Counted from the stretch's first letter, positions 3,241 to 26,108 are shown. The stretch: 64,000 bases of DNA from an uncultured Elusimicrobiales bacterium (GCA_964520045.1 CAZFMJ010000006.1:1390-65389); one strand, 5' to 3'. Numbers and translations are program-made. Notes: generated from the sequence alone by a model not told the origin.

Positions 3241-3692
3241 AATAACCCCTAGTCGTATAGATGTATTGGGTGTTGAATGCTTTCTAAGTGTTATAGTAAT
3301 AGTATAACACCCCAATATAAATTGTCAAGGGCTACGCTCTCCCAAAAATCTGCTATACTTGTTTCGGGTATTAAAAGTCCTGCCCGGCAAGTTCGGACGG
3401 CGGCGTTCCTGCTCCGGGAGAATATGGATTTATTCTTGGGTCCATTTATAGCCACCTTATTAACCTTATCTCAAAAAGATAATATCACATAAACTTCTTA
3501 TAATTTCATTCCCTTGTGGACATCAAGAAATCATTGTAAAATTATAAAGCAGGTGAATAGGCTGAAGCTGTTTAGACTGAAGGTACAAAAAACCAGGTCT
3601 TAACGGCCGATTAGGCAAAACAGGCTTCGAAGCAATTCCTTAAATGCAGTTGCTAAGAGACTTCAGCCTTCAGGCTAAACAACCTGAGTTAG

Positions 3693-5898: not shown

Positions 5899-7527
5899 AT
5901 GAATTCACGATTTTATGTGCCCAAGCCGGTAAACGAGACTATTCTGTCTTACGGTCCTGGAAGTCCCGAAAAAAAGGCGCTTAAGGCCAAGATGTTTGAG
6001 CTCTGCTCGCAGGAGATAGAAATTCCGCTTCACATAGGAGGAAAAGAAATTAAAACCGGAAAACTTGCCGACTGCCGGTGCCCGCATGCGCACAAGCATC
6101 TGCTTGGCAGATATCACAAGGCCGGTTCAAAAGAGGTAGGGCTTGCCATAGCTTCGGCGCGGAAAGCAAGAAAAGACTGGGCCGCCATGCCATGGCATGC
6201 GAGAGCCGCCATATTCCTGAAAGCGGGCGAGCTTCTTGCCGGACCGTGGAGGAGCGCTCTTAATGCGGCGACAATGCTGTGCCAGTCCAAGAATGCGTAT
6301 CAGGCGGAAATAGACTCAGCCTGCGAGCTTGTGGATTTTTACCGGTTCAATGTTTATTTTGCGGAAAAAATATACGAAGAACAGCCCTTTTCTCCGAGGG
6401 GCAATTGGAACATGCTGGAGCAGAGGCCTTTGGAGGGGTTTGTGTTCGCCGTGACCCCCTTTAATTTTACTTCTATAGCGGGAAATCTGCCGACGGCCCC
6501 CGCTTTAATGGGAAATACGGTGCTATGGAAGCCGGCTTCTTCAGCGGTGTATACGGCGCATTTCCTTATGCGGTTGTGGAAAGCGGCGGGGCTTCCCGAC
6601 GGGGTGATAAACCTTGTGGCCGGCTCCGGGGGGGAAGTGGGAAATCCGGTGTTAAACAGCCCCGAGCTTGCGGGCATACATTTTACCGGAAGCACCGATG
6701 TTTTTCAGAATATGTGGACGACTATCGGATCGAATATAAGGAAATACAAGGGATATCCCAGAATAGTGGGAGAAACCGGAGGCAAGGATTTCATAGTGGT
6801 TCATCCCAGCGCTTCGGCGGAGGAAGCCGCGACCGCGATGTCGCGGGGGGCGTTTGAATATCAGGGGCAGAAATGCTCGGCGGCAAGCCGAGCCTATGTT
6901 CCGAAATCATTGTGGCCGAAAATAAAAGAAAAACTTGCCGAACAGCTGAAATCCATGAAAATGGGAGGACCGGAGGATTTCACTAATTTCATAAACGCGG
7001 TCATTGACAGGGGCGCTTATGAAACCATAAAGGGGTATATAGACTTTGCAAAAACAGCCAAACGCTGTAAGATAATTTTCGGCGGTAAATGCGACGACGC
7101 CAAAGGGTATTTTATCGAGCCTACCGTGATAGAGACCACGGATCCGCATTTTAAGACCATGGAGGAGGAGATATTTGGTCCTGTTCTTACGGTTTATGTT
7201 TATCAGGATTCAAAATTCGACTCGGCGCTCAAGCTCTGCGACCAGACTTCTCCCTATGCCTTGACAGGCGCGATATTCGCCTCGGACAGAAAAGCCGTGC
7301 TTAAGGCCATGAGGGTTCTTGAAAATGCGGCGGGCAATTTTTATATAAACGACAAACCCACCGGCGCCGTTGTGGGCCAGCAGCCTTTCGGGGGAGCGAG
7401 AGCCTCGGGCACGAACGACAAAGCGGGCAGTATCCTCAACCTTATAAGGTGGGTGTCCCCCAGAACAATAAAGGAAAATTTTGTCCCGCCGACAGATTAT
7501 AAATATCCCTTCATGTCGGAGAAGTAG
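5899..7527 (+). CDS. pruA: L-glutamate gamma-semialdehyde (1-pyrroline-5-carboxylate) dehydrogenase, aldehyde dehydrogenase superfamily
   Basis: About 540 aa ALDH with ETGGKDF and GQKCSAASR catalytic blocks. The N-terminus FYVPKPVNE is typical of the long P5CDH type. RBS aaggaga precedes ATG 5899. Confidence 0.8.
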   Translation: MNSRFYVPKPVNETILSYGPGSPEKKALKAKMFELCSQEIEIPLHIGGKEIKTGKLADCRCPHAHKHLLGRYHKAGSKEVGLAIASARKARKDWAAMPWHARAAIFLKAGELLAGPWRSALNAATMLCQSKNAYQAEIDSACELVDFYRFNVYFAEKIYEEQPFSPRGNWNMLEQRPLEGFVFAVTPFNFTSIAGNLPTAPALMGNTVLWKPASSAVYTAHFLMRLWKAAGLPDGVINLVAGSGGEVGNPVLNSPELAGIHFTGSTDVFQNMWTTIGSNIRKYKGYPRIVGETGGKDFIVVHPSASAEEAATAMSRGAFEYQGQKCSAASRAYVPKSLWPKIKEKLAEQLKSMKMGGPEDFTNFINAVIDRGAYETIKGYIDFAKTAKRCKIIFGGKCDDAKGYFIEPTVIETTDPHFKTMEEEIFGPVLTVYVYQDSKFDSALKLCDQTSPYALTGAIFASDRKAVLKAMRVLENAAGNFYINDKPTGAVVGQQPFGGARASGTNDKAGSILNLIRWVSPRTIKENFVPPTDYKYPFMSEK

Positions 7528-12091: not shown

Positions 12092-12244
12092 ATGGATGAA
12101 AGAAAAAAATATTACGCGCACTCCGCAAATGCCAAAGGCAAATGGCAGCTGCTGAAAGACCATCTGCTAAACACCGCCATCCCGGCCCGCATCCCCCCGA
12201 TGTTCTTGAAAAATGTTCTGTTGACTGCTATAATTACAGTGTAA
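12092..12244 (+). pseudogene. duplicated 5' fragment of cas3 (first ~33 codons), then unrelated sequence to a stop
   Basis: MDERKKYYAHSANAKGKWQLLKDHLLNTAIPAR versus the cas3 N-terminus MDGIKKYYAHSANAKGEWQLLKDHLQNTAVLAR. About 98 nt align with about 10 mismatches (manual). Confidence 0.85.
12206..12234 (+). promoter_or_regulatory. sigma70-like promoter of the TA cassette (TTGAAA-N17-TATAAT), followed by direct repeats AGTGTAATGG/AGTGTAATTG
   Basis: TTGAAA at 12206-12211 and TATAAT at 12229-12234. The tandem decamers at about 12239-12258 lie between the -10 box and the RBS gggagg and are a candidate RHH operator. Confidence 0.5.
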
Positions 12245-12274: not shown

Positions 12275-12517
12275 ATGTCCAGAATAAGCGTTCAGTGGAC
12301 GGTCAGCCTTCCGCCCGAGCTCTCCAGGAAGGCGTTGTTCCTGGCTAAATGCGAAATTCGTTCCAGGTCTGAGCTTGTGCGCGAGGCCTTGCGGGAGTAT
12401 ATCTCCAGGCAGACAAGGTTTTTTGGACTCAGAAAGAAACTTGCGTCTAATATGAACAGGCGCCGCATAAAGACGCTTAAAGACATTGAGAATATTATAG
12501 ATGACGGCCGCATATAA
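12275..12517 (+). CDS. ribbon-helix-helix (CopG/Arc-type) antitoxin
   Basis: VSLPPELSRKALFLAKCEIRSRSELVREALREYI fits the beta-strand plus two helices of RHH. Overlaps the downstream PIN gene by 17 nt. Confidence 0.75.
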   Translation: MSRISVQWTVSLPPELSRKALFLAKCEIRSRSELVREALREYISRQTRFFGLRKKLASNMNRRRIKTLKDIENIIDDGRI

Positions 12518-12935
12518 AAAACTCAGGGTTGTTTTGGACACTAATGTCCTCATCTCTGCTCTGGGTTTTCTTGGCAGGGAGACCGGCAAAATATGGGATT
12601 TGGCCGAGGAAAGCGGGTATGAGCTGTTTCTGTCCGAGTTTATTCTTGATGAGCTTTTGCGTAATTTAGCTGGAAAAGCGGGATTGTCTGAAAATGACGC
12701 CGCGGAAGTAATTGAACGTGTAAGAGATTTTTCCGTCATTGCAGTTCCAAAATCAAAAGTGTCGGTCATCCGTCAAAAAGACGCAGATAACCGCATCCTT
12801 GAATGCGCTGTCGCCGCTAACGCCGATGTGATAGTGACCGGCAATATGCGCCATATCAGGCCGCTTGGCAGTTTTCGGGGCATCGCGATACTAACTCCGC
12901 GCGAGTTTTTGGACAAGCATTTCCCGGGCATTTAG
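12501..12935 (+). CDS. PIN-domain toxin (putative RNase, TA-system toxin component)
   Basis: LRVVLDTNVLISAL, SEFILDEL, DADNRILECAVAANADVIVTGN: the acidic PIN residues in the usual order. Confidence 0.8.
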   Translation: MTAAYKKLRVVLDTNVLISALGFLGRETGKIWDLAEESGYELFLSEFILDELLRNLAGKAGLSENDAAEVIERVRDFSVIAVPKSKVSVIRQKDADNRILECAVAANADVIVTGNMRHIRPLGSFRGIAILTPREFLDKHFPGI

Positions 12936-12958: not shown

Positions 12959-15163
12959 ATGGATGGAATAAAAAAATATTATGCGCACTCTGCAAATGCC
13001 AAAGGCGAATGGCAGCTGCTGAAGGATCATCTGCAAAACACCGCCGTCCTGGCCCGTCAGTTTGCCGAGTCCGCCCGCCCTGGTGATAAGGAATTTTCAG
13101 ATGCCGCTCATGCCGCCGGCCTGCTTCATGATTTAGGAAAATATTCAATCAGATTTCAGCAAAGGCTGAAAGATACTCGTGTTTGTGGTATTGAACATTG
13201 GTTGCCTGGTTCGATGACTTTGTTCGAAAATAACATGCCGTATTCCGCGTTTAGTTCATTTGCCCACCATGTGGGGCTCCTGAATATACGTGATATTAAA
13301 AATGCCATATCAGTCCCCAGTGAATCAATTCCTGAAACCACAGAAGAATTGCTTGAGCGGTTTTTGGCAGAATGCCCTCAGCCGCGTTTAAGTGTTAAAC
13401 TTGGAGTTAATTATAATCCAACACAAAACACCATCCTGACAAGAATTATTTTCAGTTGCCTGGTAGACGCTGATTTCTTGGACACGGAAAGGCATTTTGA
13501 ACCAGAAGAGTCGAAATGCCGTTTGAAAAACAAGGGAACGTTTAAGCCAAAGGATTGGCAGGCATGTTTGGATAAAAAGATAAAAACTATTTCCAAGTTG
13601 GCAAGTTCCACAAATAAAGCGAGGAGTATTGTCTTGGAAGCATGCCTTGGAGCGGCGAATAGGAAATCAGGAGTATTCTCTTTGACAGCTCCGACGGGCA
13701 GTGGTAAAACTTTGTCTAGTTTGGCATTTGCGCTTAAGCATTCGCAATTAAATCCTGCTTTTAGGAGAATAATTGTTGTCTTGCCGTATACAACGATAAT
13801 TGAGCAAACTGCGGCAGAATATCGGCAAATAGTAGGAGATCGAAACCTGCTTGAGCATCACTCCGCCAAAGATTTGGAAAAAGATTCAGAGGATGAGTTG
13901 CGTTATCGGTTCGCATCCGAGAATTGGGATGCGCCAGTTATTATTACCACACAGGTGCAGTTTTTTGAAAGTCTATTTTCCAATAAACCTTCTTCCTGCA
14001 GAAAGCTTCATCAGATTGCTAATAGCGTGATAATTTTCGACGAAATCCAGACGCTTACTGGCTATCTCCTGCGGCCGCTTTTAAATATGGTTAATGAGTT
14101 GTGCTGTGTCATGGGCTGCACTGCGGTTTTGTCTTCCGCAACGCCTAACTGTATCGGTTTGACGGCGAAAAAGCTTGGGATTAAGGACTGGGATCCTAAA
14201 GAAATAATAAATAATCCATCGGCATTGGCAAAAGCTATGCGGCGCGTTAATGTTTTAATGCCGGAGGATTACTCAGCTGCCTCTCCTTTGTCTGATATCG
14301 CCGAAGGGATGGGAAAATATAAACAGGCATTGTGTATTGTAAATCGCAAAGATGACGCGGAGGATATATTTAGGCTCCTTCCTCAGGAAGGAAGATATCA
14401 TCTTTCGACAAGAATGTGCCCTGCCCATCGTGTGAATACCCTTGATAAAATTAAGTCGGCGCTAATTTCCAATAAAACATGCCGGTTGTCCGCCACTCAG
14501 TGTGTTGAGGCGGGGGTAGACATGGATTTCCCGGCTGTGTGGCGCGCCCTTGGTCCGTTGGATTCAATTTTACAAGCGGCAGGGCGTTGCAATCGGGAGG
14601 GGAAAATAGCGCTTTCCAAATCTAATGTAAGAGTATTTATTTCTGAACGTCAACCGCCGCAAGGTTATTATAATATAGCGTCGCAGGTAACGCCTATTTT
14701 TCAGCAGTTTTGCCGTGGCGAGGATATTTTAGACCCCGAGACCATTTCTAAATACTTTACCCTGTTGTTGGATAGGATGCCTATTGATAAGGTTTTTCTT
14801 GACGATGGCAGGGAGGCTAGGGTTGCTGATTTGGAGAGGGACGGTGAATTTGCCGCCATTGCGCGTGCGGTTAGGTTGATAAAAGATGATACTGTTCAGG
14901 TAGTTGTGCCTTATGAGAGAAAAGGCCGCGCGGCGAAGAAATACCTGGAAAATTTTAGTAAAAAGTTTGGTGCGCGGCCGTTGCCGCATAATATACGCAA
15001 AAAACTCGGTCGGATTTCCGTGCAATTCCACAAAAATCAAGTGTCATATTATTGTGCCCATGGCGTTATGAAGGAATTTAAAAATCAAACTTATGTGTGG
15101 ATTGGCCATTATGATAAAGATCTTGGTTGTGTCATTCCAAAACCGGAGGATAGTATCGTATGA
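12959..15163 (+). CDS. cas3: CRISPR-associated helicase/nuclease Cas3 (HD plus SF2 helicase)
   Basis: N-terminal HD domain (YAHS...LHDLGK), Walker A APTGSGKT, DEAD-like box FDEIQ. First gene of the I-C operon. Confidence 0.95.
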   Translation: MDGIKKYYAHSANAKGEWQLLKDHLQNTAVLARQFAESARPGDKEFSDAAHAAGLLHDLGKYSIRFQQRLKDTRVCGIEHWLPGSMTLFENNMPYSAFSSFAHHVGLLNIRDIKNAISVPSESIPETTEELLERFLAECPQPRLSVKLGVNYNPTQNTILTRIIFSCLVDADFLDTERHFEPEESKCRLKNKGTFKPKDWQACLDKKIKTISKLASSTNKARSIVLEACLGAANRKSGVFSLTAPTGSGKTLSSLAFALKHSQLNPAFRRIIVVLPYTTIIEQTAAEYRQIVGDRNLLEHHSAKDLEKDSEDELRYRFASENWDAPVIITTQVQFFESLFSNKPSSCRKLHQIANSVIIFDEIQTLTGYLLRPLLNMVNELCCVMGCTAVLSSATPNCIGLTAKKLGIKDWDPKEIINNPSALAKAMRRVNVLMPEDYSAASPLSDIAEGMGKYKQALCIVNRKDDAEDIFRLLPQEGRYHLSTRMCPAHRVNTLDKIKSALISNKTCRLSATQCVEAGVDMDFPAVWRALGPLDSILQAAGRCNREGKIALSKSNVRVFISERQPPQGYYNIASQVTPIFQQFCRGEDILDPETISKYFTLLLDRMPIDKVFLDDGREARVADLERDGEFAAIARAVRLIKDDTVQVVVPYERKGRAAKKYLENFSKKFGARPLPHNIRKKLGRISVQFHKNQVSYYCAHGVMKEFKNQTYVWIGHYDKDLGCVIPKPEDSIV

Positions 15164-15900
15164 ATGAAAACAACTCAGTTTTTCTCAAAGTCTGGGGTGA
15201 GTATGCTTGTTTTACGAGGCCTGAACTCAAAGTTGAGCGTGTCAGCTATGCAGTTCCAACGCCGTCCGCCGCTCGTGGATTTCTGGAAGCTATACTATTT
15301 AAACCGGAATTTCGCTGGCGGATTGAGGAAATAAGTGTGTTGAAAGAAATTCAATTTATAAATCTCCGGCGTAACGAGGTTCAAGGGGTTATCTCAAGCA
15401 GGAATGTAGAATCCGCCATGCGCGGCACAAAGGAATTGTCCCCGCTTATGGCTGATGACACGGATAATGAGGGAGAAGGCCGGACACAACGCCAAACCAT
15501 AGCTTTGCGGGATGTGTCGTATATTATCAAAGCAAGTCCCCGACCTTTTACCGCTTCAGGCACAGTAGATTTAGTTAGGAAATTTAAAGAGCAATTTGAG
15601 CGACGTGTCCAGAAAGGGCAGTGCTTCCAGCAGCCATATTTCGGTTGCAGGGAGTTTGTGGCTAATTTTTTGCTCCCTACCGGTAATGAAAAACCTATTG
15701 CTGTTTCAAGAGAACTTGGCTGGATGCTTTATGATATTTTTGACTTAAACGCACAGCCGGTCCCGATTTCTAACGCAGACGTACTTGAAAAACATAGACA
15801 GCTTTCGCTTTTTGAGGCTAAACTTGAAAACGGCGTAGTTAAGGTGCCGGATTGGAATTCAGACACGGTCAGACATGCCGCTGTTCAGGAGGCAAAATGA
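15160..15900 (+). CDS. cas5: Cas5d (type I-C pre-crRNA endoribonuclease subunit)
   Basis: VFLKVWGEYACFTRPELKVERVSYAVPTPSAARGFLEAILFKPEFRW is the Cas5d signature. ATGA overlaps on both sides. Confidence 0.95.
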   Translation: MNENNSVFLKVWGEYACFTRPELKVERVSYAVPTPSAARGFLEAILFKPEFRWRIEEISVLKEIQFINLRRNEVQGVISSRNVESAMRGTKELSPLMADDTDNEGEGRTQRQTIALRDVSYIIKASPRPFTASGTVDLVRKFKEQFERRVQKGQCFQQPYFGCREFVANFLLPTGNEKPIAVSRELGWMLYDIFDLNAQPVPISNADVLEKHRQLSLFEAKLENGVVKVPDWNSDTVRHAAVQEAK

Positions 15901-17657
15901 TACTTCAAAGACTGGTAGAATACGCGGAGAGGAATAAGCTTGGTGTGGACCAGACCTATTCCGATAAAAAAGTTTACTGGCAAGTGGAACTTGACTCCGT
16001 AGGTAATTTTGTCGGAGTAGTGCCGAGAGGTATAGAGGAAAGGATTATTGGGGGGCAGAGTAGAACGAAACATGTGGGCGAAGATATTTGTGCGCCATAC
16101 ACACCCTCTAATCTCATGAATGGTGGTAAAATAGCCCATTTTATTATTGATTCTGCAGAAAGGATACTATTTTGGCATGAACAGAATATTGATGGGAAAA
16201 AAATTAAAAAATTAAAAATTCAACATCAATATTACTGGATGCTGATAGAAGAATGTTGGAAAACCGCGATTGAGAATAAAAGACAATTTAATGCGCTTGT
16301 TTCTGCGCAGAAAATTATCGCTGACTTAATTGACGCTCTTAAACAACGAGGGGCCAAACCCAGCCAAAATATTGTTTTCGCGATAGATGGAATCCTGCTG
16401 GCGGAATTGCCTGAAGCAAAAAAGTATTGGGGTGAGCATTTCCGTAAATTTACGTGTTCTGGAAAAGCGGGTGCTTCTTATCTGGATTTATCTTCTGGGA
16501 AGGTAATCGTAAATCCAAAAAATAGTCATGGAAAAATCAAACGTGTGCCTGGAGGTAATCAATCCGGGACATCATTTATTGCCAATGATAAAAATGCGTT
16601 TAAGTCTTTCGGACTGGAGGATGCCTTAAATGCTCCGGTTTCTTCTGAGAATGAGGCAAAATATCGAGAAGCCCTCAATGCTTTGATCCAAAAAGGAGAA
16701 AGGATTCCACCTGAAGCGGTAGCCTGTTTCTGGACGAGAAAAGATACGCAATGCGATCCGTGGTCAACAATAAAAGAACCGAATGAGGAGGATGTGCGGT
16801 CACTGCTGGCCTCTCCTTTGTCTGGTGATAGACATGCCGCTGATATCCAAGAGGATGAATTCTATTCTCTTATTTTAAGCGGCGTCGGCGGCCGGATTAT
16901 GGTGCGAGACTGGATGGAAAGCACTGTGGGGAAAACAAAGGAATCCCTTAAAAAATGGTTTGCGGACATAACAATCATACAGCCGGATGGTTTGGCCGTA
17001 AAATCAAATCATAAGCTTTTCGCTCTGCTTGGCGCGTTGATTAGGGAAAAATTTGATGAATTACCGCCCCAACTTCCGGTGCAGTTGATTCAAGCAGCGT
17101 TAAATAGTAGGCCGCTGCCTATTATACTACTCAGCCTTGCCATAAAAAAGGTGATGATGTCTGTTTACATATCTAAAGATGATGATGTTGATAAATTTGG
17201 AAAGGAAATGCGTCGGACGGCGATTATACGTTTATGTCTTCTCCGTTCGCAATCAAATCAGGAGGTGAATGGTAAAATGCAGGAAAAACTTGACAATGAA
17301 CAAAAAGACCCGGCATATTTGTGCGGGCGGCTGTTGGCAATGCTGGATAGAGTGCAGTATCTTGCGCTTGGCGATGTTGGAGCTGGTGTTATTGAGCGAA
17401 TGTATGGTGCAGCAAGCACTACACCAGCACTTGTCTACGGACGTATTTTTAGAAATGCTCAAGCGCACTTGAGTAAACTGTCAAAAGAAAAGCCCGGCGC
17501 GGCCGTGAATATGGAGAAAGACTTGGAGGAAGTTACAGGCCATCTTAAAGTATGGCCGAAAACCTTAGACCTTGAGGGCCAGGCACGCTTTGCTCTAGGG
17601 TTTTATCATCAGAAAGCTGCGTATAGGGCTAGAAGTATTGAAAATAGGACGAGATAA
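15897..17657 (+). CDS. cas8c: Cas8c/Csd1 large subunit (type I-C)
   Basis: Csd1-like N-terminus MILQRLVEYAERN, about 586 aa, positioned between cas5d and cas7. Start at ATG 15897, overlapping the cas5 stop. Confidence 0.9.
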   Translation: MILQRLVEYAERNKLGVDQTYSDKKVYWQVELDSVGNFVGVVPRGIEERIIGGQSRTKHVGEDICAPYTPSNLMNGGKIAHFIIDSAERILFWHEQNIDGKKIKKLKIQHQYYWMLIEECWKTAIENKRQFNALVSAQKIIADLIDALKQRGAKPSQNIVFAIDGILLAELPEAKKYWGEHFRKFTCSGKAGASYLDLSSGKVIVNPKNSHGKIKRVPGGNQSGTSFIANDKNAFKSFGLEDALNAPVSSENEAKYREALNALIQKGERIPPEAVACFWTRKDTQCDPWSTIKEPNEEDVRSLLASPLSGDRHAADIQEDEFYSLILSGVGGRIMVRDWMESTVGKTKESLKKWFADITIIQPDGLAVKSNHKLFALLGALIREKFDELPPQLPVQLIQAALNSRPLPIILLSLAIKKVMMSVYISKDDDVDKFGKEMRRTAIIRLCLLRSQSNQEVNGKMQEKLDNEQKDPAYLCGRLLAMLDRVQYLALGDVGAGVIERMYGAASTTPALVYGRIFRNAQAHLSKLSKEKPGAAVNMEKDLEEVTGHLKVWPKTLDLEGQARFALGFYHQKAAYRARSIENRTR

Positions 17658-17668
17658 AGGAGAATAAA

Positions 17669-18544
17669 ATGACCGTTATAAAAAATCGTTACGACTTTGT
17701 TTATCTGTTTGATTGCCTTGACGGCAATCCCAACGGAGATCCTGATGCCGCAAATGCTCCACGTCTTGACCCCCAAACCTTACAGGGGATAGTTTCCGAT
17801 GTTTGCATTAAGCGCAAAGTGCGTAATTATGTGCAAATGCGCGGCCAGCCCATTTTTATACAGCACCACGGCATATTAAACAGCGAGATAGATAAAGCTG
17901 AACCAAGAAATGCGGAGCGAAATCGTGAAGAACGTAATCAGGCGGCGAAGTGGATGTGCGGAAATTTTTATGATGTCCGGGCATTCGGGGCGGTGATGAG
18001 CACTGGTTCAAATGCGGGACAGGTCAGAGGACCTATTCAGTTTACCTTTTCCCGCTCCATTGATCCGGTTGTGGCGTTGGACTTATCAATAACACGGGTC
18101 GCAATAACAAAAGTGGAGGATAAGGATAAAAAGGAAACGGAAATGGGCCGCAAAAACCTTATCCCTTACGGTCTTTACCGTTGCCATGGTTTTATAAATG
18201 CGAACTTGGCTCAGGAGCCTAATGGTACAGGATTTTCGGAAGAAGACCTTTCTCTTTTTTGGGAATCCTTGAAAATGATGTTTGATCATGATAGATCTGC
18301 TTCAAGAGGGACAATGTCGCCTCAAATGCTTACGGTGTTTAAACATATAGGAACTGATACTGATGAAAAACAGCGGTCTACCCAGGCAAAACTTGGGTGT
18401 GCCCCTGCACATAAACTGTTTGAGCTTATTAAAATTGAAAAAAACAAGGAAATCCCTCGCAAATACTTGGATTATAATGTCACCATGCCGGAAGCTGGAG
18501 TATTGACGGATTTTCCTGGTGTTGAAGTTATGCGCTTGATATAA
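17669..18544 (+). CDS. cas7: Cas7/Csd2 backbone subunit (type I-C)
   Basis: NRYDFVYLFDCLDGNPNGDPDAANAPR is the Csd2 signature. Confidence 0.95.
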   Translation: MTVIKNRYDFVYLFDCLDGNPNGDPDAANAPRLDPQTLQGIVSDVCIKRKVRNYVQMRGQPIFIQHHGILNSEIDKAEPRNAERNREERNQAAKWMCGNFYDVRAFGAVMSTGSNAGQVRGPIQFTFSRSIDPVVALDLSITRVAITKVEDKDKKETEMGRKNLIPYGLYRCHGFINANLAQEPNGTGFSEEDLSLFWESLKMMFDHDRSASRGTMSPQMLTVFKHIGTDTDEKQRSTQAKLGCAPAHKLFELIKIEKNKEIPRKYLDYNVTMPEAGVLTDFPGVEVMRLI

Positions 18545-18556
18545 ACGGGGTATCGA

Positions 18557-19177
18557 TTGGAACAAATTCTTCTTTCTGCTGTTAACCAGTATCTTTTTTG
18601 CCCAAGGAGATGCGGGTTGATTCACGTGGACGGCGTGTTTGCGGATAACGCCTACACGCTGGAGGGGAGTTTTTTGCATGGCAGGGCGGATACGCCAGGA
18701 GTGGAGAACAGGCCCGGCGTGAGAATTGTCCGGGCTCTGCCTCTTTATTCCAGAAAACTGGGGTTGAGCGGCAAGGCTGACATTGTGGAGTTTCATAAAC
18801 AGCAGGGCCATGCAGAAACGCCTCTGCCGGTTGATTACAAACGCGGGCCGCGCAGGAAATGGGAGAACGACGATGCCCAGCTCTGCGCGCAAGCCCTGTG
18901 CCTTGAGGAAATGCTGAATGCGGAGGTGCCGAAGGGGGCAATATTCCACGCCGCATCAAAACGGCGGAGAGAGGTGATATTTGACGTGGCGTTGCGTGAA
19001 ACCACGCTGAAAGCGATAGGCGATGTGCGTTCCATGCTTAAAACCGGCAAAGTTCCGCCGCCGATTCCAAGTCCACGTTGTGAAGGATGTTCGCTTAAAA
19101 AAATCTGCATACCCGAAATAGTTTCCGCGCCGGAAAAAGTTGCAAATTATAATAACAGTGTTTTTGACGGAGGATAG
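18557..19177 (+). CDS. cas4: Cas4 (RecB-like PD-(D/E)xK nuclease with Fe-S Cys cluster)
   Basis: N-terminal YLFCPRRC plus C-terminal CEGCSLKKIC cysteines; GKADIVEF nuclease core. TTG start. Confidence 0.9.
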   Translation: MEQILLSAVNQYLFCPRRCGLIHVDGVFADNAYTLEGSFLHGRADTPGVENRPGVRIVRALPLYSRKLGLSGKADIVEFHKQQGHAETPLPVDYKRGPRRKWENDDAQLCAQALCLEEMLNAEVPKGAIFHAASKRRREVIFDVALRETTLKAIGDVRSMLKTGKVPPPIPSPRCEGCSLKKICIPEIVSAPEKVANYNNSVFDGG

Positions 19178-19178
19178 C

Positions 19179-19922
19179 ATGAATTTCCAAAACCTGGTTA
19201 ATGTTATAACCGAAACGCAGAAAAATCTGCAGGGGCGGGCTTTGCGCAGTGTCGACCATTTTTTGACCGTCCGCAACTGGCTGATAGGTTGTTACATTGT
19301 GGAATATGAGCAAAAGGGAAACGACCGCGCGCAATATGGAGAGCATCTGCTTGAAAAACTGTCTGCCGCGCTTTGCGGGGAAAAAATGCGGGGGATGTCT
19401 TTCAGAAGTCTTAAGCTTTTTAGACAGTTTTACTGCGTGTATCCTCATATTGGGCAATCAGTGATTGCCCAATTCAAGGCAGCGGATATCAGCCTTCCGG
19501 CGCCAATTGGGCAATCGCTGTCTGCCCAATTGAGTGCCAATCTCCTGTCGGGCGGAAGAAATCTTGTCCGGTTAAGACAACCGTCGGGGGACTGTGGCAC
19601 AAAACCCGAATTATTGCTGTGCCGCCTAAGATTTACTCATTTTGCCAGATTGCTGGCTATAGACGAACCGGTTCAACGTTCATTTTATGAAGTGGAAACT
19701 ATCAAAGGCAATTGGAGTGTGCGTCAATTGAAGCGTCAGATAGAAAGCCTTCTTTATGAGCGGACCGGCCTTTCAAAAAACAAGACGTCCCTTCTTGCCA
19801 AAGTTCATAATCAAAAAGACGTTCCCATGCCGGAGGATATCATTAAAGACCCTTATGTTCTGGAATTTACCGGCTTGCAGGAACGTTCTGAATATAGCGA
19901 AAATGATTTAGAAACTGCTTGA
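19179..19922 (+). CDS. YhcG/DUF1016 N-terminal-domain protein lacking the C-terminal PDDEXK nuclease domain
   Basis: NWLIGCYIVEYEQKG..RAQYGEHLLEKLS, FTHFARLL, SFYEVETIKGNWSVRQLKRQI, KDPYVLEFTGL...SENDLETA then a stop, at the point where full-length YhcG proteins begin the nuclease core. RBS ggagga. Confidence 0.7.
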   Translation: MNFQNLVNVITETQKNLQGRALRSVDHFLTVRNWLIGCYIVEYEQKGNDRAQYGEHLLEKLSAALCGEKMRGMSFRSLKLFRQFYCVYPHIGQSVIAQFKAADISLPAPIGQSLSAQLSANLLSGGRNLVRLRQPSGDCGTKPELLLCRLRFTHFARLLAIDEPVQRSFYEVETIKGNWSVRQLKRQIESLLYERTGLSKNKTSLLAKVHNQKDVPMPEDIIKDPYVLEFTGLQERSEYSENDLETA

Positions 19923-19944
19923 TGCCTAACGATATAAAATAAAT

Positions 19945-20979
19945 ATGGACGCCGTAAGACAAAATACCCTATATGTAATGACGCAGGGCGCATACCTGCA
20001 CCGCGACCACTTGACGGTCAAGGTCGAAATTGAAAAAGAGACCCGGCTAAGCGTGCCCATTCACCATCTGGAATCTGTTTCTATTTTCGGGAATGTTATG
20101 GTGTCTCCCGGCGTTATGCGGTTATGCGCTGAAAACGGCGCGGCAATTACTTTTATGAGCGAGACAGGCAGGCTTATTGCCAGAGTTGACGCTCCGCAGT
20201 CAGGCAACGTTTTGTTAAGGCGCGAGCAATTCCGCAAAGCTGATAAGCCGGAAGAGGCGTTAAAAATTTCCATCCGTATAATAGCCGGAAAACTGCAAAA
20301 TACCCGTTGTGTGCTTATGCGGACGGCGCGGCAGGTGGAAGACAGCGTGGATATATCGGTTTTAGATAAATCTGCCGGAGATATCGGCCATATAATCAAA
20401 AGACTTGAATCCGCGAAATCTATTGATGAAGCGCGTGGATACGAAGGCGAAGGCGCGCAGATTTATTTCGGAGTTTTCAATAATCTTATGAAACAGCAGA
20501 GGGATGATTTCAGAATAACAAACAGAAACCGCCGGCCTCCGCTGGATCCCGCCAACGCCCTTCTTTCTTTTTCCTATGCCTTGCTTCTGCATGACTGCGT
20601 TTCAGCGCTTACAGCGGCCGGGTTGGATCCGAATGTGGGATTTCTGCATGCGGACAGGCCGGGGCGTCCGTCGCTGGCGCTGGATTTAATGGAGGAGTTC
20701 CGGCCTATTATCGCCGACAGGCATGTGCTGTCTATGATAAACAGGAAGGAAGTCGATAAAGATTGTTTTGCTAAACGCGAAGGCGGAGCTGTGGAAATGA
20801 GCGATGCCGCCCGAAAAAAGGTGGTTTCCGCATATCAACAGCGCAAACAGGAGGAAGTCACGCATCCATTGCTTGAACAGAAAATGACGGTAGGAATACT
20901 GCCTTTCTGCCAGGCGCGGTTATTGGCCCGCTATATCAGGGGAGACATAGCTGAATATCCGCCGTGCGTGCTGAAATGA
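19945..20979 (+). CDS. cas1: Cas1 integrase (type I-C)
   Basis: About 344 aa with GYEGEGAQIYF, NALLSFSYALL and FLHADRPGRPSLALDLMEEFRP blocks. Confidence 0.95.
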   Translation: MDAVRQNTLYVMTQGAYLHRDHLTVKVEIEKETRLSVPIHHLESVSIFGNVMVSPGVMRLCAENGAAITFMSETGRLIARVDAPQSGNVLLRREQFRKADKPEEALKISIRIIAGKLQNTRCVLMRTARQVEDSVDISVLDKSAGDIGHIIKRLESAKSIDEARGYEGEGAQIYFGVFNNLMKQQRDDFRITNRNRRPPLDPANALLSFSYALLLHDCVSALTAAGLDPNVGFLHADRPGRPSLALDLMEEFRPIIADRHVLSMINRKEVDKDCFAKREGGAVEMSDAARKKVVSAYQQRKQEEVTHPLLEQKMTVGILPFCQARLLARYIRGDIAEYPPCVLK

Positions 20980-21266
20980 TTATTGTTGTAGGATACGATG
21001 TGAATACTGAAACGGCAAAAGGCAGACGCAGACTGCGGCGCGTGGCTCTTGCCTGTAAAGATTACGGCCAGCGGGTGCAGAAGTCTGTTTTTGAGTGCAG
21101 GGTGGGCGGCAATGAATGGGTAAAATTCAAAACCCGGCTTCTTGCTGAAATAGAGGAAAAAGAAGACAGCCTGCGCTTTTATTTTATAGATGAAGCCGCG
21201 CAAAGGCGCACTGAGCATTACGGTCTTGGCAGGCCGGTGGATTTGGACGGCCCATTGATTGCGTGA
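20976..21266 (+). CDS. cas2: Cas2
   Basis: MIIVVGYDVNTETAKGRRRLRRVALACKDYGQRVQKSVFEC...SLRFY. ATGA overlap with cas1. Confidence 0.9.
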   Translation: MIIVVGYDVNTETAKGRRRLRRVALACKDYGQRVQKSVFECRVGGNEWVKFKTRLLAEIEEKEDSLRFYFIDEAAQRRTEHYGLGRPVDLDGPLIA

Positions 21267-21454: not shown

Positions 21455-22204
21455 GTTTCTCCTCTCCGAAAGGGGAGGAGTGGATTGAAACTTATGATGG
21501 TTTAGACTATCTTAAGCCTCGGTTGAGTTTCTCCTCTCCGAAAGGGGAGGAGTGGATTGAAACGTTGAACCATACAAAAGTAAACGACTGAACAAAGGTT
21601 TCTCCTCTCCGAAAGGGGAGGAGTGGATTGAAACAATTAATTCCTGTTCCATAAAGAAATCATACAAAGTTTCTCCTCTCCGAAAGGGGAGGAGTGGATT
21701 GAAACCTCAATCTTCCTGTTCAGTGTGCTACTGGCGTATGTTTCTCCTCTCCGAAAGGGGAGGAGTGGATTGAAACTAAACAATCAATATTTGTATAAAC
21801 TTTACGACCGTTTCTCCTCTCCGAAAGGGGAGGAGTGGATTGAAACATATCGACAGAATACTTGTGTCGCAGGCGGCCGGAACGTTTCTCCTCTCCGAAA
21901 GGGGAGGAGTGGATTGAAACATATACGGAGCCGAAGATAATGCGACGTTTATGAGTTTCTCCTCTCCGAAAGGGGAGGAGTGGATTGAAACATATTGTTT
22001 CATCCTGAAGTGCTTTCGTTGATTTTGTTTCTCCTCTCCGAAAGGGGAGGAGTGGATTGAAACCGCAGACTTTCCTATAAGCTGGGAGTTGTTGAGGTTT
22101 CTCCTCTCCGAAAGGGGAGGAGTGGATTGAAACTGTGAAATTGCGTAGTCGGTATCTGGTATTAATTGTTTCTCCTCTCCGAGAGGGGGGGAGTGGATTG
22201 AAAC
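21455..22204 (+). CRISPR. CRISPR array, 11 repeats of 37 nt and 10 spacers of 33-37 nt; leader on the cas2 side
   Basis: Repeat GTTTCTCCTCTCCGAAAGGGGAGGAGTGGATTGAAAC starts at 21455, 21527, 21598, 21669, 21740, 21810, 21884, 21955, 22027, 22097 and 22168. The last repeat is degenerate (gagaggggggg). The GTGGATTGAAAC 3' end is I-C-like. Confidence 0.97.
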
Positions 22205-22219
22205 AGAAAAAAACAAATT

Positions 22220-22965: not shown

Positions 22966-25140
22966 TCAATGTCTGAAGTGGCGCACGCCTGTAAAGACCA
23001 TTGCGATATTATGTTCGTCCGCCGCCGCTATAACTTCCTTGTCTTTTATTGATCCGCCCGGCTCTATAACGGCCGTTGCGCCTATTTTCGCCGCTTCGTC
23101 GATCCCGTCCCTGAACGGAAAGAAAGCGTCCGAGGCGAGAGCTAAAACTCCGGCGGGTTTATTGTCTTTCATATACGCCTGATATTTTCTGCCGGCCATG
23201 TGGACGGAGTCGACCCGCGACATCTGGCCGGCGCCTATTCCCACCGTGTTATGCCTGTCCGCAAGAACTATCGCGTTTGATTTCACATGCTTGCAGACCG
23301 TCCACGCGAATTTAAGGGCTTGTTCCTCTTCTTTGGAGGGTTTGCGTTTTGTGACCGCATTCCACTCTTTGCCTAAAACTATCGAGTCGCGCTCCGTGAC
23401 AAGGGTTTCGTCGCCGGTCGAGCGCAGTATCCATTTGTTTCCGATCGGGGTTTTCCTTTCAAGCAGGCGGATGTTCTGCTTTTGGGATAAAATCTTTACC
23501 GCTTCGGGGTCGTATTCCGGAGCGGAGATAACTTCAACGAACCTTTTGGCGAGTATTTCCGCTATTTCCTTTGTGAATTTCCGGTTTACGGCTATAACTC
23601 CCCCGAAGGCCGACAAACCGTCGCAGTTCCACGCCCTGTTGAAAGCGTCAAGAAGGTTTTCGCCTTCCGCTATTCCGCACGGCGTAACGTGCTTAAAAAT
23701 AACCACGGCCGGTTTTTCAAGTTCGCAGACCGCCTCCCATGTTCCGTTCGCGTCAAGGATGTTGTTGAAAGAAAGTTCCTTGCCGTGAAGCTGGCTGAAG
23801 GAGGGGGAGCCTGAATCGGAATAAAGAGCCGCTTTCTGGTGGGGGTTTTCGCCGTATCTTAAATCCTGTATTTTTATCAGAGCGGGCTGGAACGTTTTGG
23901 GAAAAACTCCGTTATTTGAACTTTTACTAAACGCGTTGTGAATCATTGTGTCGTATTCCGCCGTATGGCCGAATGCTTCCACCGCCAGTTTTTTTCTGGT
24001 TTCTCCGCTTAGGCATCCTCCGGAAGACTCCATTTCCTTAATCACATTTTTGTATTCCGCGGGATTTGATATGACGGCCACGTCTTCAAAATTTTTTGCC
24101 GCGGCGCGCAGAAGGGCAACTCCGCCGATGTCTATTTCCTCTATGACTTTCTGCTCGAACGGCGATGCGGCGTTGGCCGCGGTTTTGGCGAACGGATATA
24201 AATTAACGGCAACAAGATCTATGGGCTCAAGTCCGAACCGCTCCGCTTCGGTCCGTTGGCGGCTGTCCTGCCTTCTGAAAAGTATGGCGCCGTGCACCAT
24301 AGGATGAAGCGTTTTGACCCGGCCCGAAAGTATTTCCGGAAATCCCGTCATGGATTCCAGCGGTCTTACGTTTATTCCGGCTTCTTTGAGCATTTTTGCC
24401 GTGCCGGAAGTGGAGACTATTTCCACGCCGAGAGCTGAAAGGCTTTTTGCAAATTCCGCCAAGCCGGTTTTGTCGGACACCGAAATAAGGGCGCGCTTTA
24501 CGGCGTTTTGCCGTTTCCCGCCGTGAGCCGTGATTTTTACCCTGCGGTTTTCCAGCTTCAGCCTGTCTTCGCAGAAAAGGCTTACGGCTCTTGGGTATAA
24601 AAGATGCTCCTGGGCATGCACTCTTTTTGCAAGGGTTTCCGGAGTGTCGCCTTCCAGCACAGGAACGCCGGCCTGAAGTATTATCGGGCCTGTATCGTAA
24701 TCCTTGTCTATAAAATGAACGGTGGCTCCGCTAAGGCGCGCCCCGGAAGCCAGCGCCGCCTCATGAACTTTCATGCCGTACATGCCTTTTCCTCCGAATG
24801 ACGGAAGGAGCGCCGGATGAATGTTCATTATATGAGGAAAACGGCTGAGCATTTGGTTTCCGAGTTTCAGCATGAATCCGGCGAGGCATATTAAATCAAT
24901 ATGTTTTTCAGAGCATAACTGCGTAAGTCTTTTGTCTAAATCTTCAGGGGAGGAATAATCCGCCGGAGTCAGGCAGACTGCCGGTATCCCCGCTTTTTCA
25001 GCCCGTTTAAGGGCTCCCGCGTCTCTGCGGCTGGAGACGACAAGCGCTATATTGCCGTTTATCCGTCCGCTTTGCGCGGAGTCTATCAAAGATTGAAGAT
25101 TAGTGCCTTCTCCGGAAGCAAATACCGCAATATTTTTCAT
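22966..25140 (-). CDS. purH: fused PurN-PurH: GAR formyltransferase (aa 1-~205) joined to AICAR formyltransferase/IMP cyclohydrolase
   Basis: N-terminus: IAVFASGEGTNLQSLID, NIHPALLP, HFIDKDYDTGPIILQ (PurN). From about aa 215: RALISVSDKTGLAEFAKSL...VKTLHP...FTGVRHFRH (PurH). One uninterrupted 724-aa ORF. Confidence 0.9.
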   Translation of the reverse strand: MKNIAVFASGEGTNLQSLIDSAQSGRINGNIALVVSSRRDAGALKRAEKAGIPAVCLTPADYSSPEDLDKRLTQLCSEKHIDLICLAGFMLKLGNQMLSRFPHIMNIHPALLPSFGGKGMYGMKVHEAALASGARLSGATVHFIDKDYDTGPIILQAGVPVLEGDTPETLAKRVHAQEHLLYPRAVSLFCEDRLKLENRRVKITAHGGKRQNAVKRALISVSDKTGLAEFAKSLSALGVEIVSTSGTAKMLKEAGINVRPLESMTGFPEILSGRVKTLHPMVHGAILFRRQDSRQRTEAERFGLEPIDLVAVNLYPFAKTAANAASPFEQKVIEEIDIGGVALLRAAAKNFEDVAVISNPAEYKNVIKEMESSGGCLSGETRKKLAVEAFGHTAEYDTMIHNAFSKSSNNGVFPKTFQPALIKIQDLRYGENPHQKAALYSDSGSPSFSQLHGKELSFNNILDANGTWEAVCELEKPAVVIFKHVTPCGIAEGENLLDAFNRAWNCDGLSAFGGVIAVNRKFTKEIAEILAKRFVEVISAPEYDPEAVKILSQKQNIRLLERKTPIGNKWILRSTGDETLVTERDSIVLGKEWNAVTKRKPSKEEEQALKFAWTVCKHVKSNAIVLADRHNTVGIGAGQMSRVDSVHMAGRKYQAYMKDNKPAGVLALASDAFFPFRDGIDEAAKIGATAVIEPGGSIKDKEVIAAADEHNIAMVFTGVRHFRH

Positions 25141-26108
25141 ATATTTTCGAGACGGACCTCAGGGGTGCCTTTTTTTATATGTCCGATTATTTTTGCCTGA
25201 GGCAGGAGCTTGAGAGATATAGCCGCGCTTTCGGGCCTGACCGCAATGACCATTCCTATGCCCATATTAAAGGTGCGCCACATTTCTTTTTCAGGGATAT
25301 TTCCTTTCTCCCGCAGTGTCAGCATGATGTCCGGTATTTTCCATGAAGAGGCGTCCAGCGCGGCGCAGCAGTTTTTAGGCAGGAATCTCGGCACATTTTC
25401 CACCAATCCTCCGCCCGTTATATGCGCCATGCCCAAAACATCGCGCCCCGCTTTTTTAAGCCCTTCGCGCAGTTTTTTTACGGCTGACACATAAATTATA
25501 GTGGGCGTGAGCAGTTCGCGCGCATATTTTTTAAGAAGGCTTCCTTTAAAGACTTTACGCACAAGCGAGTAGCCGTTGGAATGAAATCCCGAGGATGCCA
25601 GTCCCAGCAGAACATCGCCGGGCTTTATTTTTGTTCCGTCTATCGTTTCCGAATTTTTGACTATTCCCACGGAAAAACCCGCCAGATCATATTCGCTTTT
25701 TGCGTAAAAACCCGGCATCTCCGCGGTTTCGCCTCCCAGAAGCATGGAGTCGGCCTGTCCGCATCCCTCAAGGATTCCGTCCATTATCCGGCGGGAAGTT
25801 TTCATGTCCAATTTGCCGGAGGCGTAGTAATCAAGGAAAAAAAGCGGTTTTGCTCCGCAGGTTATAAGGTCATTAGCGCACATGGCCACCAAATCAATGC
25901 CTATGGTATCGTGCTTATCAAGCAAAAAGGCCAGTTTAAGTTTTGTTCCAACTCCATCCGTGCAAGCGGCAAGGCTGTATCCCCGCGCTTTGTCGCCGAG
26001 CGGAAAAAGTCCGGCAAAACCGCCTATGACCGGACATTTTTTCTGCAGGTAATCAACAAGGCTGTCTCCCGCTTTTGTGTCAACTCCCGAGTCTTTATAT
26101 GTCGGCAT
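25137..26108 (-). CDS. purM: phosphoribosylformylglycinamidine cyclo-ligase (AIR synthetase)
   Basis: [28 protein letters not shown] blocks. Confidence 0.95.

Follow-up and report, generated by a model that had tools for sequence, protein, structure and literature searches.

What is an additional gene doing between cas4 and cas1 of an otherwise complete type I-C operon? The question arises in a 64,000-nucleotide (nt) stretch of DNA from an uncultured Elusimicrobiales bacterium (hereafter the window), whose plus strand carries cas3, cas5c, cas8c, cas7, cas4, cas1 and cas2, followed by a CRISPR array, the full set of a type I-C host locus. An earlier note, made from the sequence alone, had described at this junction a 247-codon open reading frame (ORF) with its own ribosome-binding site, and had assigned it the N-terminal domain of the YhcG/DUF1016 family without the PD-(D/E)xK nuclease core. 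All of this holds, save that the interval it gave, 19178-19944, also takes in the 22-nt spacer before cas1: the ORF itself begins with an ATG at 19179, 1 nt past the stop of an intact cas4 ending at 19177, and closes with a TGA at 19920-19922, 22 nt short of an equally intact cas1 starting at 19945. The ribosome-binding site is a GGAGGA hexamer 4 nt before the ATG. We think it probable that this ORF is a decayed, nuclease-dead relic of a nuclease gene that lodges in operons.

The domain content is clear-cut. Pfam searches returned a complete and significant DUF1016_N match (E 3.1e-28, 99 bits against a cut-off of 32.8; amino acids (aa) 11-195, profile positions 3-137 of 137), and only a fragment of YhcG_C (aa 220-246, profile positions 2-26 of 157), which at 16.5 bits falls under its cut-off of 32.5. 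In a 16-sequence alignment the window protein ends in ...KDPYVLEFTGLQERSEYSENDLETA and a stop, that is in ...SENDLETA, while all 15 aligned relatives run on through LL.HIQEFLLELG.GFCFEARQKRI...DRIDLVFYH...LIDLK, which bears the catalytic E, D and D-x-K; the window protein thus stops ahead of E266, D282 and D297-x-K299 (numbering of the orthologue P0002). The PD-(D/E)xK domain is absent from the window ORF and present in 4/4 syntenic orthologues. Because the deletion took this whole domain with all catalytic residues, the product cannot be a nuclease. It is not a second Cas4 either, as the extra ORF gives no Cas_Cas4 (PF01930), TIGR00372 or PDDEXK_1 match and the true cas4 lies at 18557-19177. 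Two profiles of PADLOC do recognise it: that of the candidate system PDC-S02 (PDLC04807, E 6.7e-63, profile positions 12-208 of 351) and one labelled 'PD_DExK, CAS-associated' (PDLC01464), with E 1.8e-21 for the window ORF and 3.6e-34 for a full-length orthologue. Modelled alone, the N-domain is all-helical, with a predicted local distance difference test score (pLDDT) of 78.7 and a predicted template modelling score (pTM) of 0.72; no significant structural match was found for it among PDB folds, the NucS N-domain included, and a sequence search for solved structures gave no real match.

The missing part can be traced in locus L001, which with L002 encodes P0002, a full-length syntenic orthologue 79% identical to the window protein over all 247 aa. 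By blastn, window positions 18558-19918 correspond to L001 6219-7625 and 19945-20969 to L001 8046-9118, with 76.6% nucleotide identity over the 1,407 aligned columns of cas4 and the N-terminal part of yhcG, 72.9% over cas1, and a clean gap between the two. Synteny and DNA alignment alike establish orthology to the full-length members. Within the gap, 420 nt of L001 (7626-8045, comprising the nuclease domain and an 8-nt spacer) are replaced by 26 nt in the window. Out-of-frame nuclease remnants downstream, which the note had envisaged for a decaying gene, were not detected: the six-frame translation of 19896-19965 holds none, and when the entire window was searched by tblastn with two nuclease domains, nothing better than E 0.65 came up. 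Their absence follows from the deletion running almost to cas1. We do not claim that the deletion cost cas1 its Shine-Dalgarno site, since in the relatives ~13 nt separate the GAGGG from the start, a distance too long for certainty.

A protein search revealed no second copy of the exact window protein, which is a singleton, and its close relatives are all full length, with 360-430 aa and both domains. Four other type I-C lineages carry such a full-length YhcG (383-412 aa, 56-79% identical to the window protein) exactly in a cas4-yhcG-cas1-cas2 slot, where the distance to the neighbouring genes ranges from a 23-nt overlap to a 17-nt gap. Full-length YhcG is therefore a conserved slot resident in at least four other I-C lineages. 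The clade is small: in a DNA search its signature YATTGLDNKL matched only the 10 known loci, and just three metagenome contigs. As a separate observation, L003 (3578-4351), L004 and L005 carry, 3' of cas2, a 67-aa ORF and a DUF6036 nucleotidyltransferase gene that resemble a toxin-antitoxin pair, at the place where the window has its CRISPR array.

A sixth lineage is represented by L099, a 1062-bp groundwater contig with a coverage of 1, which shows on its reverse strand (1037-313) the same cas4, yhcG, cas1 arrangement and the same N-terminal allele as the window. Its yhcG is broken in another way: after aa 1-147 the gene continues in another frame with aa ~284-381, having lost ~aa 148-283, and cas1 follows. 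The slot is thus occupied in six I-C lineages, the window and L099 included; four of the six are intact and these two bear independent deletions. L099 also shares the derived motif ELLLC with the window copy. A comparison of nonsynonymous divergence (dN) ruled it out as the closest relative of the window. Elsewhere in the family, the other N-only members are plain frameshift or deletion products that break at differing points (aa 228, 252 and 257).

We then considered where the family resides more broadly, using the neighbourhoods of 79 species-representative yhcG loci (L015-L093), 76 of which were scanned for upstream neighbours. None of the 79 shows the cas4-cas1 arrangement. Flanking ORFs are co-directional in 80% of cases, and both co-directional and within 100 nt in 48%; upstream neighbours include tyrosine integrases (11/76), N6-methylases (6/76) and ORF6N proteins (4), and YhcG homologues are found on 507 PLSDB plasmids. 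The next-closest relatives (49-56% identity) lie in a defence island, beside toxin-antitoxin genes or within housekeeping operons. These results suggest that yhcG travels on mobile elements as a lodger gene without a promoter of its own. Even so, five of these 79 otherwise unselected loci fall in cas operons, well above what we would have expected for a random gene. In a further I-C locus, L101 (3977-5192), a different YhcG lineage (49% identity) is represented by a gene with HATPase_c_4/HTH on one side and cas4 on the other. One frameshift, located where its two domains meet, breaks it into two ORFs, the second of which ends 3 nt 5' of cas4. Within the Planctomycetota-Verrucomicrobiota-Chlamydiota group, a YhcG clade is placed in type I-G (GSU0053/GSU0054) operons, adjoining cas3 or cas8u. 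Association with cas genes across lineages is accordingly seen in the six I-C slot lineages, in L101 beside cas4, and in four or five type I-G loci.

How did the window copy arise, and is it still of use? In the small type I-C clade a full-length yhcG sits exactly between cas4 and cas1; the window ORF is the 5' two-thirds of such a gene, in which a deletion of ~0.4 kb let codon 247 meet a TGA 22 nt ahead of cas1 and left the remaining I-C system intact. The remnant would still be co-transcribed with cas4-cas1-cas2 and is probably translated, because it has a Shine-Dalgarno-like site, starts 1 nt past the stop of cas4 and is not close to any terminator-like site. It would most likely be a fairly recent, functionless relic. 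Decay is what its singleton status, the L099 lesion (which removes half of the N-domain) and the broken state of the other N-only members all point to. The earlier suggestion of a decayed insertion is thus right about the decay, with which the clean deletion and the L099 lesion fit best, and wrong about a casual insertion, given that the full-length gene is a resident of several lineages. Several observations weigh against a useless relic of a lodger gene. The remnant ORF is fully open; pairwise against L001 its ratio of nonsynonymous to synonymous divergence (dN/dS) is 0.12 over 245 codons, with dS ~1.0, and that of cas4 is 0.13; it breaks 3/63 conserved columns (>=90%), the same count as the intact P0002; and when L099 serves as the outgroup, seven amino-acid changes over residues 1-147 are private to the window and seven to L001. 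As the remnant resembles intact copies in all these respects, the absence of excess damage fits either recent deletion or continued constraint, and no relative closer to the window copy was found that could tell these apart or date the deletion. A relative-rate test that took L003, L006 and L009 for its outgroups was discarded as invalid for cas4 and cas1, whose tree differs from that of yhcG. The same lack of damage, with the Shine-Dalgarno-like site and the tight coupling to cas4, would suit a 247-aa N-domain protein that has been retained and works without the nuclease, either as a DNA-binding or dimerising adaptor of Cas4/Cas1 (the note had proposed a nuclease-less adaptor next to Cas4), or by inhibiting, in a dominant-negative and antitoxin-like manner, full-length YhcG paralogues encoded elsewhere. 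Taken alone, the N-domain is predicted to fold, and Rpn PD-(D/E)xK nucleases offer a precedent, since a short isoform translated separately from the same gene restrains them. We nevertheless regard a retained function as improbable: no second lineage has an N-only form in the slot, all four intact syntenic lineages keep the nuclease, the lesion of L099 speaks against preservation of the N-domain for its own sake, the N-only members elsewhere are broken genes, and no full-length paralogue occurs within the window. The adaptor proposal in particular is unsupported, although the ORF is intact and shows no excess damage. A last point against our reading is that the source is apparently a single NCBI contig, seen once, so that the truncation might be an assembly artefact and the organism might really carry the full-length gene. 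This we hold to be very improbable, as the junction is not a repeat collapse but 26 nt of unique, AT-rich sequence with flanks that align cleanly to the orthologues, no repeat spans the break, and the independent contig L099 shows that deletions in yhcG do occur.

The ancestral gene, for its part, is unlikely to have been dedicated to adaptation. It would more likely have been an autonomous, horizontally mobile single-gene endonuclease module, combining a NucS/Hjc-like nuclease domain with a helical N-domain that evolves fast and would determine specificity or dimerisation. Such modules would habitually lodge co-directionally within restriction-modification loci, integrative elements, plasmids and cas operons, where they would use the promoter of the host and be easily lost. 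Set against this is the persistence of the slot across Cas1 divergence down to 76% identity, together with type I-G yhcG loci whose Cas3 proteins are only 39-44% identical; both argue that the full-length gene gains from cas operons or gives something to them. It could be a genuine accessory factor of CRISPR, a nuclease serving Cas4-bearing type I systems that was lost here, acting as a second enzyme of prespacer trimming or in the resolution of branched DNA during integration, for which a NucS/Hjc-like fold, suited to branched or mismatched DNA, would be apt. In keeping with such a role, cas4-yhcG-cas1-cas2 is inherited as a unit beside very different effectors (Cas7 38-52% and Cas3 31-39% identical, with a different gene order in L006), dN/dS is 0.12-0.18 in the intact copies, placements beside cas4 (L101) and cas3 (four or five verrucomicrobial type I-G loci, that of Akkermansia muciniphila among them) are independent, and both the share of surveyed loci in cas operons and the CAS-associated profile match agree with it. 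However, the place within cas loci varies (after or before cas4, after or before cas3, or after cas8), ~4/11 of the copies embedded in CRISPR loci are broken although their cas genes are intact, and most I-C and I-G systems have no yhcG. CRISPR-linked sequences resemble each other (66-72% between allele groups) scarcely more than they resemble non-CRISPR relatives (62-65%), bootstrap support for the clade is only 0.39-0.70, and the clade is rare, with three metagenome contigs by its signature pattern. We therefore favour the autonomous, operon-lodging module over a dedicated adaptation factor; an accessory role is unlikely, though it keeps real weight.

The N-domain itself varies in an unusual manner. 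The Pfam DUF1016_N match stretches over 185 aa for 135 profile positions, and residues 112-137 are modelled with a pLDDT below 50. The Cas1 proteins of L001, L003 and L006 are 96% identical with a dS of ~0.5, while their YhcG N-domains are 60-65% identical with a dS of at least 1.5. Sliding-window identity resolves three N-domain alleles, namely window/L001 (and L099), L003/L009, and L006; between alleles, nucleotide identity is 40-60% at gene nt ~150-450 (window 19330-19630), whereas cas4, cas1 and cas2 are ~90% identical between the same loci. The C-domain groups differently, L001 going with L003 and L006 with L009. That the alleles differ so sharply between loci with similar cas genes, and that the C-domain groups otherwise, indicates a shuffling of the N-domain by recombination within the gene or by diversifying exchange, of the kind known for specificity determinants.

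The same region contains an intragenic DNA palindrome, present in the window as one perfect and one imperfect copy that can pair with each other. As single-stranded DNA, window 19440-19540 folds with -32.1 kcal/mol (z -7.6), and no Rfam family matches within 19000-20100. Of 91 distinct yhcG genes from the loci retrieved for the comparison, 64 have 12 or more of 13 Watson-Crick pairs at the same gene position and 88 have 10 or more of 13, compared with 0-1 genes (20 shuffles) and 5-20 genes (10 shuffles), respectively, when synonymous codons are shuffled, which rules out a by-product of protein-level conservation. Perfect palindromes number 73 instances and 64 distinct sequences, with arms mostly of 11-14 nt, and only three comparable ones occur in the remaining 71 kb of the same genes. 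Over the family the palindrome measures ~25-39 bp, its sequence varying while its symmetry is kept (for example at L006 8270-8296, L105 ~3253-3283 and L106 2803-2841), and the variation of the peptide is a consequence of the symmetry, as in IGQTLSAQ versus IRQTLSDE. On an 87-sequence alignment, 94.3% of cells are paired versus 70.9% in shuffles, a percentage inflated by the choice of the best centre per gene, which the synonymous-shuffle controls address. In this alignment double-sided changes affect 12/13 pairs, compensatory cells number 238 against 67 expected, and the covariation score of 0.588 (versus 0.156) was matched by 0/500 shuffles. Distant members share the feature, among them copies on a Paraburkholderia plasmid (15-nt arms) and a Legionella plasmid (9-nt arms), an enterobacterial-type copy, and the yhcG that lies between gltD and nanQ on the E. 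coli chromosome, where perfect arms of 18 nt surround a 3-nt centre.

An RNA hairpin is disfavoured: changes at the internal pairs are nearly all double Watson-Crick replacements, G:U intermediates being almost absent, and on the sense strand G:T mismatches (46) show no enrichment over A:C (80). This near absence of intermediates fits a helix of DNA and not one of RNA. The palindrome might be a binding site that co-evolves with a dimeric N-domain, a substrate on which the nuclease acts in cruciform or hairpin form, or the recombination site through which alleles are shuffled, or it might perpetuate itself by template-switch correction. One may extend this to a self-contained nuclease with its own functional DNA site that was recruited into Cas4-bearing type I (I-C, I-G) operons to work with the adaptation or interference machinery, the window copy then being a natural separation-of-function variant; we consider this wider scheme doubtful.

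Coordinates are collected in the table below. In the region scan no terminator-like plus-strand site or strong promoter was seen between cas4 and cas1, and the best promoter-like site of the region, at 12206-12234, is sigma-70-like with 11/12 matches plus TG. It precedes a toxin-antitoxin pair of a ribbon-helix-helix (RHH)/VapB-like gene (12275-12517) and a PIN gene (12501-12935), which ends 24 nt 5' of cas3 and may be co-transcribed with the cas operon; L049 likewise has two PIN genes, between yhcG and cas4. The cas8c ORF as listed has a TTG start and a 49-nt overlap with cas5c (15852-15900); its true start is probably further downstream, because the Csd1 profile match begins only at residue 21. 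Beyond the array, the minus strand (22966-25140) encodes a 724-aa fusion of PurN (Formyl_trans_N) and PurH (MGS and AICARFT_IMPCHas), directly upstream of purM (25137-26108).

Table. Features of the window and of related yhcG loci.
Feature	Locus	Position	Strand	Remarks
Interference genes cas3, cas5c, cas8c, cas7	window	12959-18544	+	5' of adaptation block
cas3	window	12959-15163	+	Pfam Cas3-like_C_2/DEAD/HD
cas5c	window	15160-15900	+	Pfam Cas_Cas5d
cas8c (Csd1)	window	15852-17657	+	Pfam Cas_Csd1, E 8e-93
cas7	window	17669-18544	+	Pfam Cas_Cas7, E 3.5e-95
cas4, 206 aa, intact	window	18557-19177	+	PF01930 E 1.6e-19; TIGR00372 E 1.2e-40
GGAGGA, Shine-Dalgarno-like hexamer	window	19169-19174	+	within cas4 3' end, 4 nt 5' of extra-ORF ATG; direct reading
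Truncated yhcG, 247 codons + TGA	window	19179-19922	+	DUF1016_N and linker, without nuclease core; Pfam, orthologue alignment
Hypervariable mosaic N-domain insert, ~aa 90-145	window	19446-19613	+	Pfam span, sliding-window identity, pLDDT
Palindrome copy 1, perfect 12/1/12: ATTGGGCAATCA g TGATTGCCCAAT	window	19449-19473		encodes IGQSVIAQ
Palindrome copy 2, imperfect: CAATTGGGCA atcgctgtc TGCCCAATTG	window	19504-19532		encodes IGQSLSAQ; can pair with copy 1
Sole surviving YhcG_C piece, aa 220-246	window	19836-19916	+	precedes catalytic residues; Pfam, alignment
Deletion junction, 26 nt	window	19919-19944	+	last base of codon 247, TGA, AT-rich 22-nt spacer; blastn against L001
cas1, 344 aa, intact, type I-C	window	19945-20979	+	PF01867 E 1e-101; TIGR03640 E 1.4e-143
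cas2, 100 aa	window	20964-21266	+	PF09827 E 1.2e-21
CRISPR array, 11 repeats of ~37 nt, GTTTCTCCTCTCCGAAAGGGGAGGAGTGGATTGAAAC	window	~21456-22205	+	period 70-74; final repeat degenerate
P0002	L001/L002			79% identity to window protein; cas4-yhcG-cas1-cas2 slot
P0003	L003-L005			60% identity to window protein; cas4-yhcG-cas1-cas2 slot
P0006	L009/L010			57% identity to window protein; cas4-yhcG-cas1-cas2 slot
P0007	L006-L008			56% identity to window protein; cas4-yhcG-cas1-cas2 slot; Elusimicrobia metagenome-assembled genome
yhcG, Prosthecobacter	L024	5974-7167		type I-G locus
yhcG, Verrucomicrobiales	L053	5959-7161		type I-G locus
yhcG, Akkermansia muciniphila	L054	~6001-7110		type I-G locus
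yhcG, Opitutaceae	L049	5920-7368		type I-G locus; in-frame stop
yhcG	L038	544-1662		beside Cas3 fragment of only 99 aa

For annotation, the window ORF should be entered as the truncated remnant of a YhcG-family gene, and not as a new kind of Cas protein or another Cas4. Of greater interest than the ORF is its setting, which comprises the conserved cas4-YhcG-cas1 block, the recurrent link to I-C and I-G operons, the shuffled N-domain and the conserved palindrome. The YhcG-type nuclease emerges as a recurrent and sometimes long-lived resident of type I-C/I-G cas operons, which had so far been only an unexplained hidden Markov model (HMM) label, and is now a concrete candidate accessory or lodger nuclease beside Cas4 and Cas1. 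The shuffling of N-domain alleles resembles that of specificity determinants, and the conserved, covarying palindrome, which is also present in yhcG of the experimentally convenient E. coli, offers a direct experimental handle on the function of this widespread family.

How does the ORF compare with known systems? The description of YhcG/COG4804 published in 2005 joins a helical N-domain of ~200 aa to a PD-(D/E)xK domain related to NucS/DUF91 and to archaeal Holliday-junction resolvases, and reports no conserved neighbourhood (PMC1189080). The family, YhcG/DUF1016 (PF17761 and PF06250, COG4804), has no demonstrated function; PADLOC places it as the phage-defence candidate PDC-S02, one representative of which was assayed in a preprint and gave no protection against T7, T5 or T4. 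Over their entire length the 247 aa of the window can be aligned with family members, at 49-79% identity, and the ORF bears the family's intragenic palindrome, but it lacks the defining PD-(D/E)xK domain and lies in a cas operon, whereas most members lie elsewhere. The note had known of no CRISPR role for this domain, and our literature search for YhcG/DUF1016 in CRISPR loci, at cas4-cas1 junctions or with Cas4 likewise found nothing relevant; the link is nonetheless implicit in the Cas-associated 'PD-DExK' profile, a name that is also among the signature genes of CRISPR annotation tools. That profile matches the window ORF, and the gene is within a cas operon, but the profile is a mere label in HMM libraries for which we found no described role.

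The AlphaFold model of a full-length orthologue (pLDDT 70) gave NucS/EndoMS (2vld, 5gke) as the best PDB matches of its C-domain in Foldseek, a weak but top-ranked hit (probability ~1.0, E 0.03, template modelling score 0.3) that agrees with the published relationship (PMC1189080). The nuclease domain of the full-length orthologue thus resembles that of NucS/EndoMS and Hjc, but it is deleted in the window ORF, and the YhcG N-domain has no detectable relation to that of NucS. Cas4 and full-length YhcG have the PD-(D/E)xK superfamily in common and their genes are adjacent; the window ORF differs in lacking any Cas_Cas4/PDDEXK_1 match, and the true cas4 is intact directly upstream.

The closest parallels in organisation are PrrC, a stand-alone nuclease gene lodged in type I restriction-modification loci, and the Rpn nucleases, which have hypervariable regions and short inhibitory isoforms. 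Like these, yhcG is a single nuclease gene, co-directional within a host defence operon, with a hypervariable, recombining region and truncated forms; unlike them, it has no sequence relationship to either, and no guard or toxin-antitoxin evidence attaches to YhcG here.

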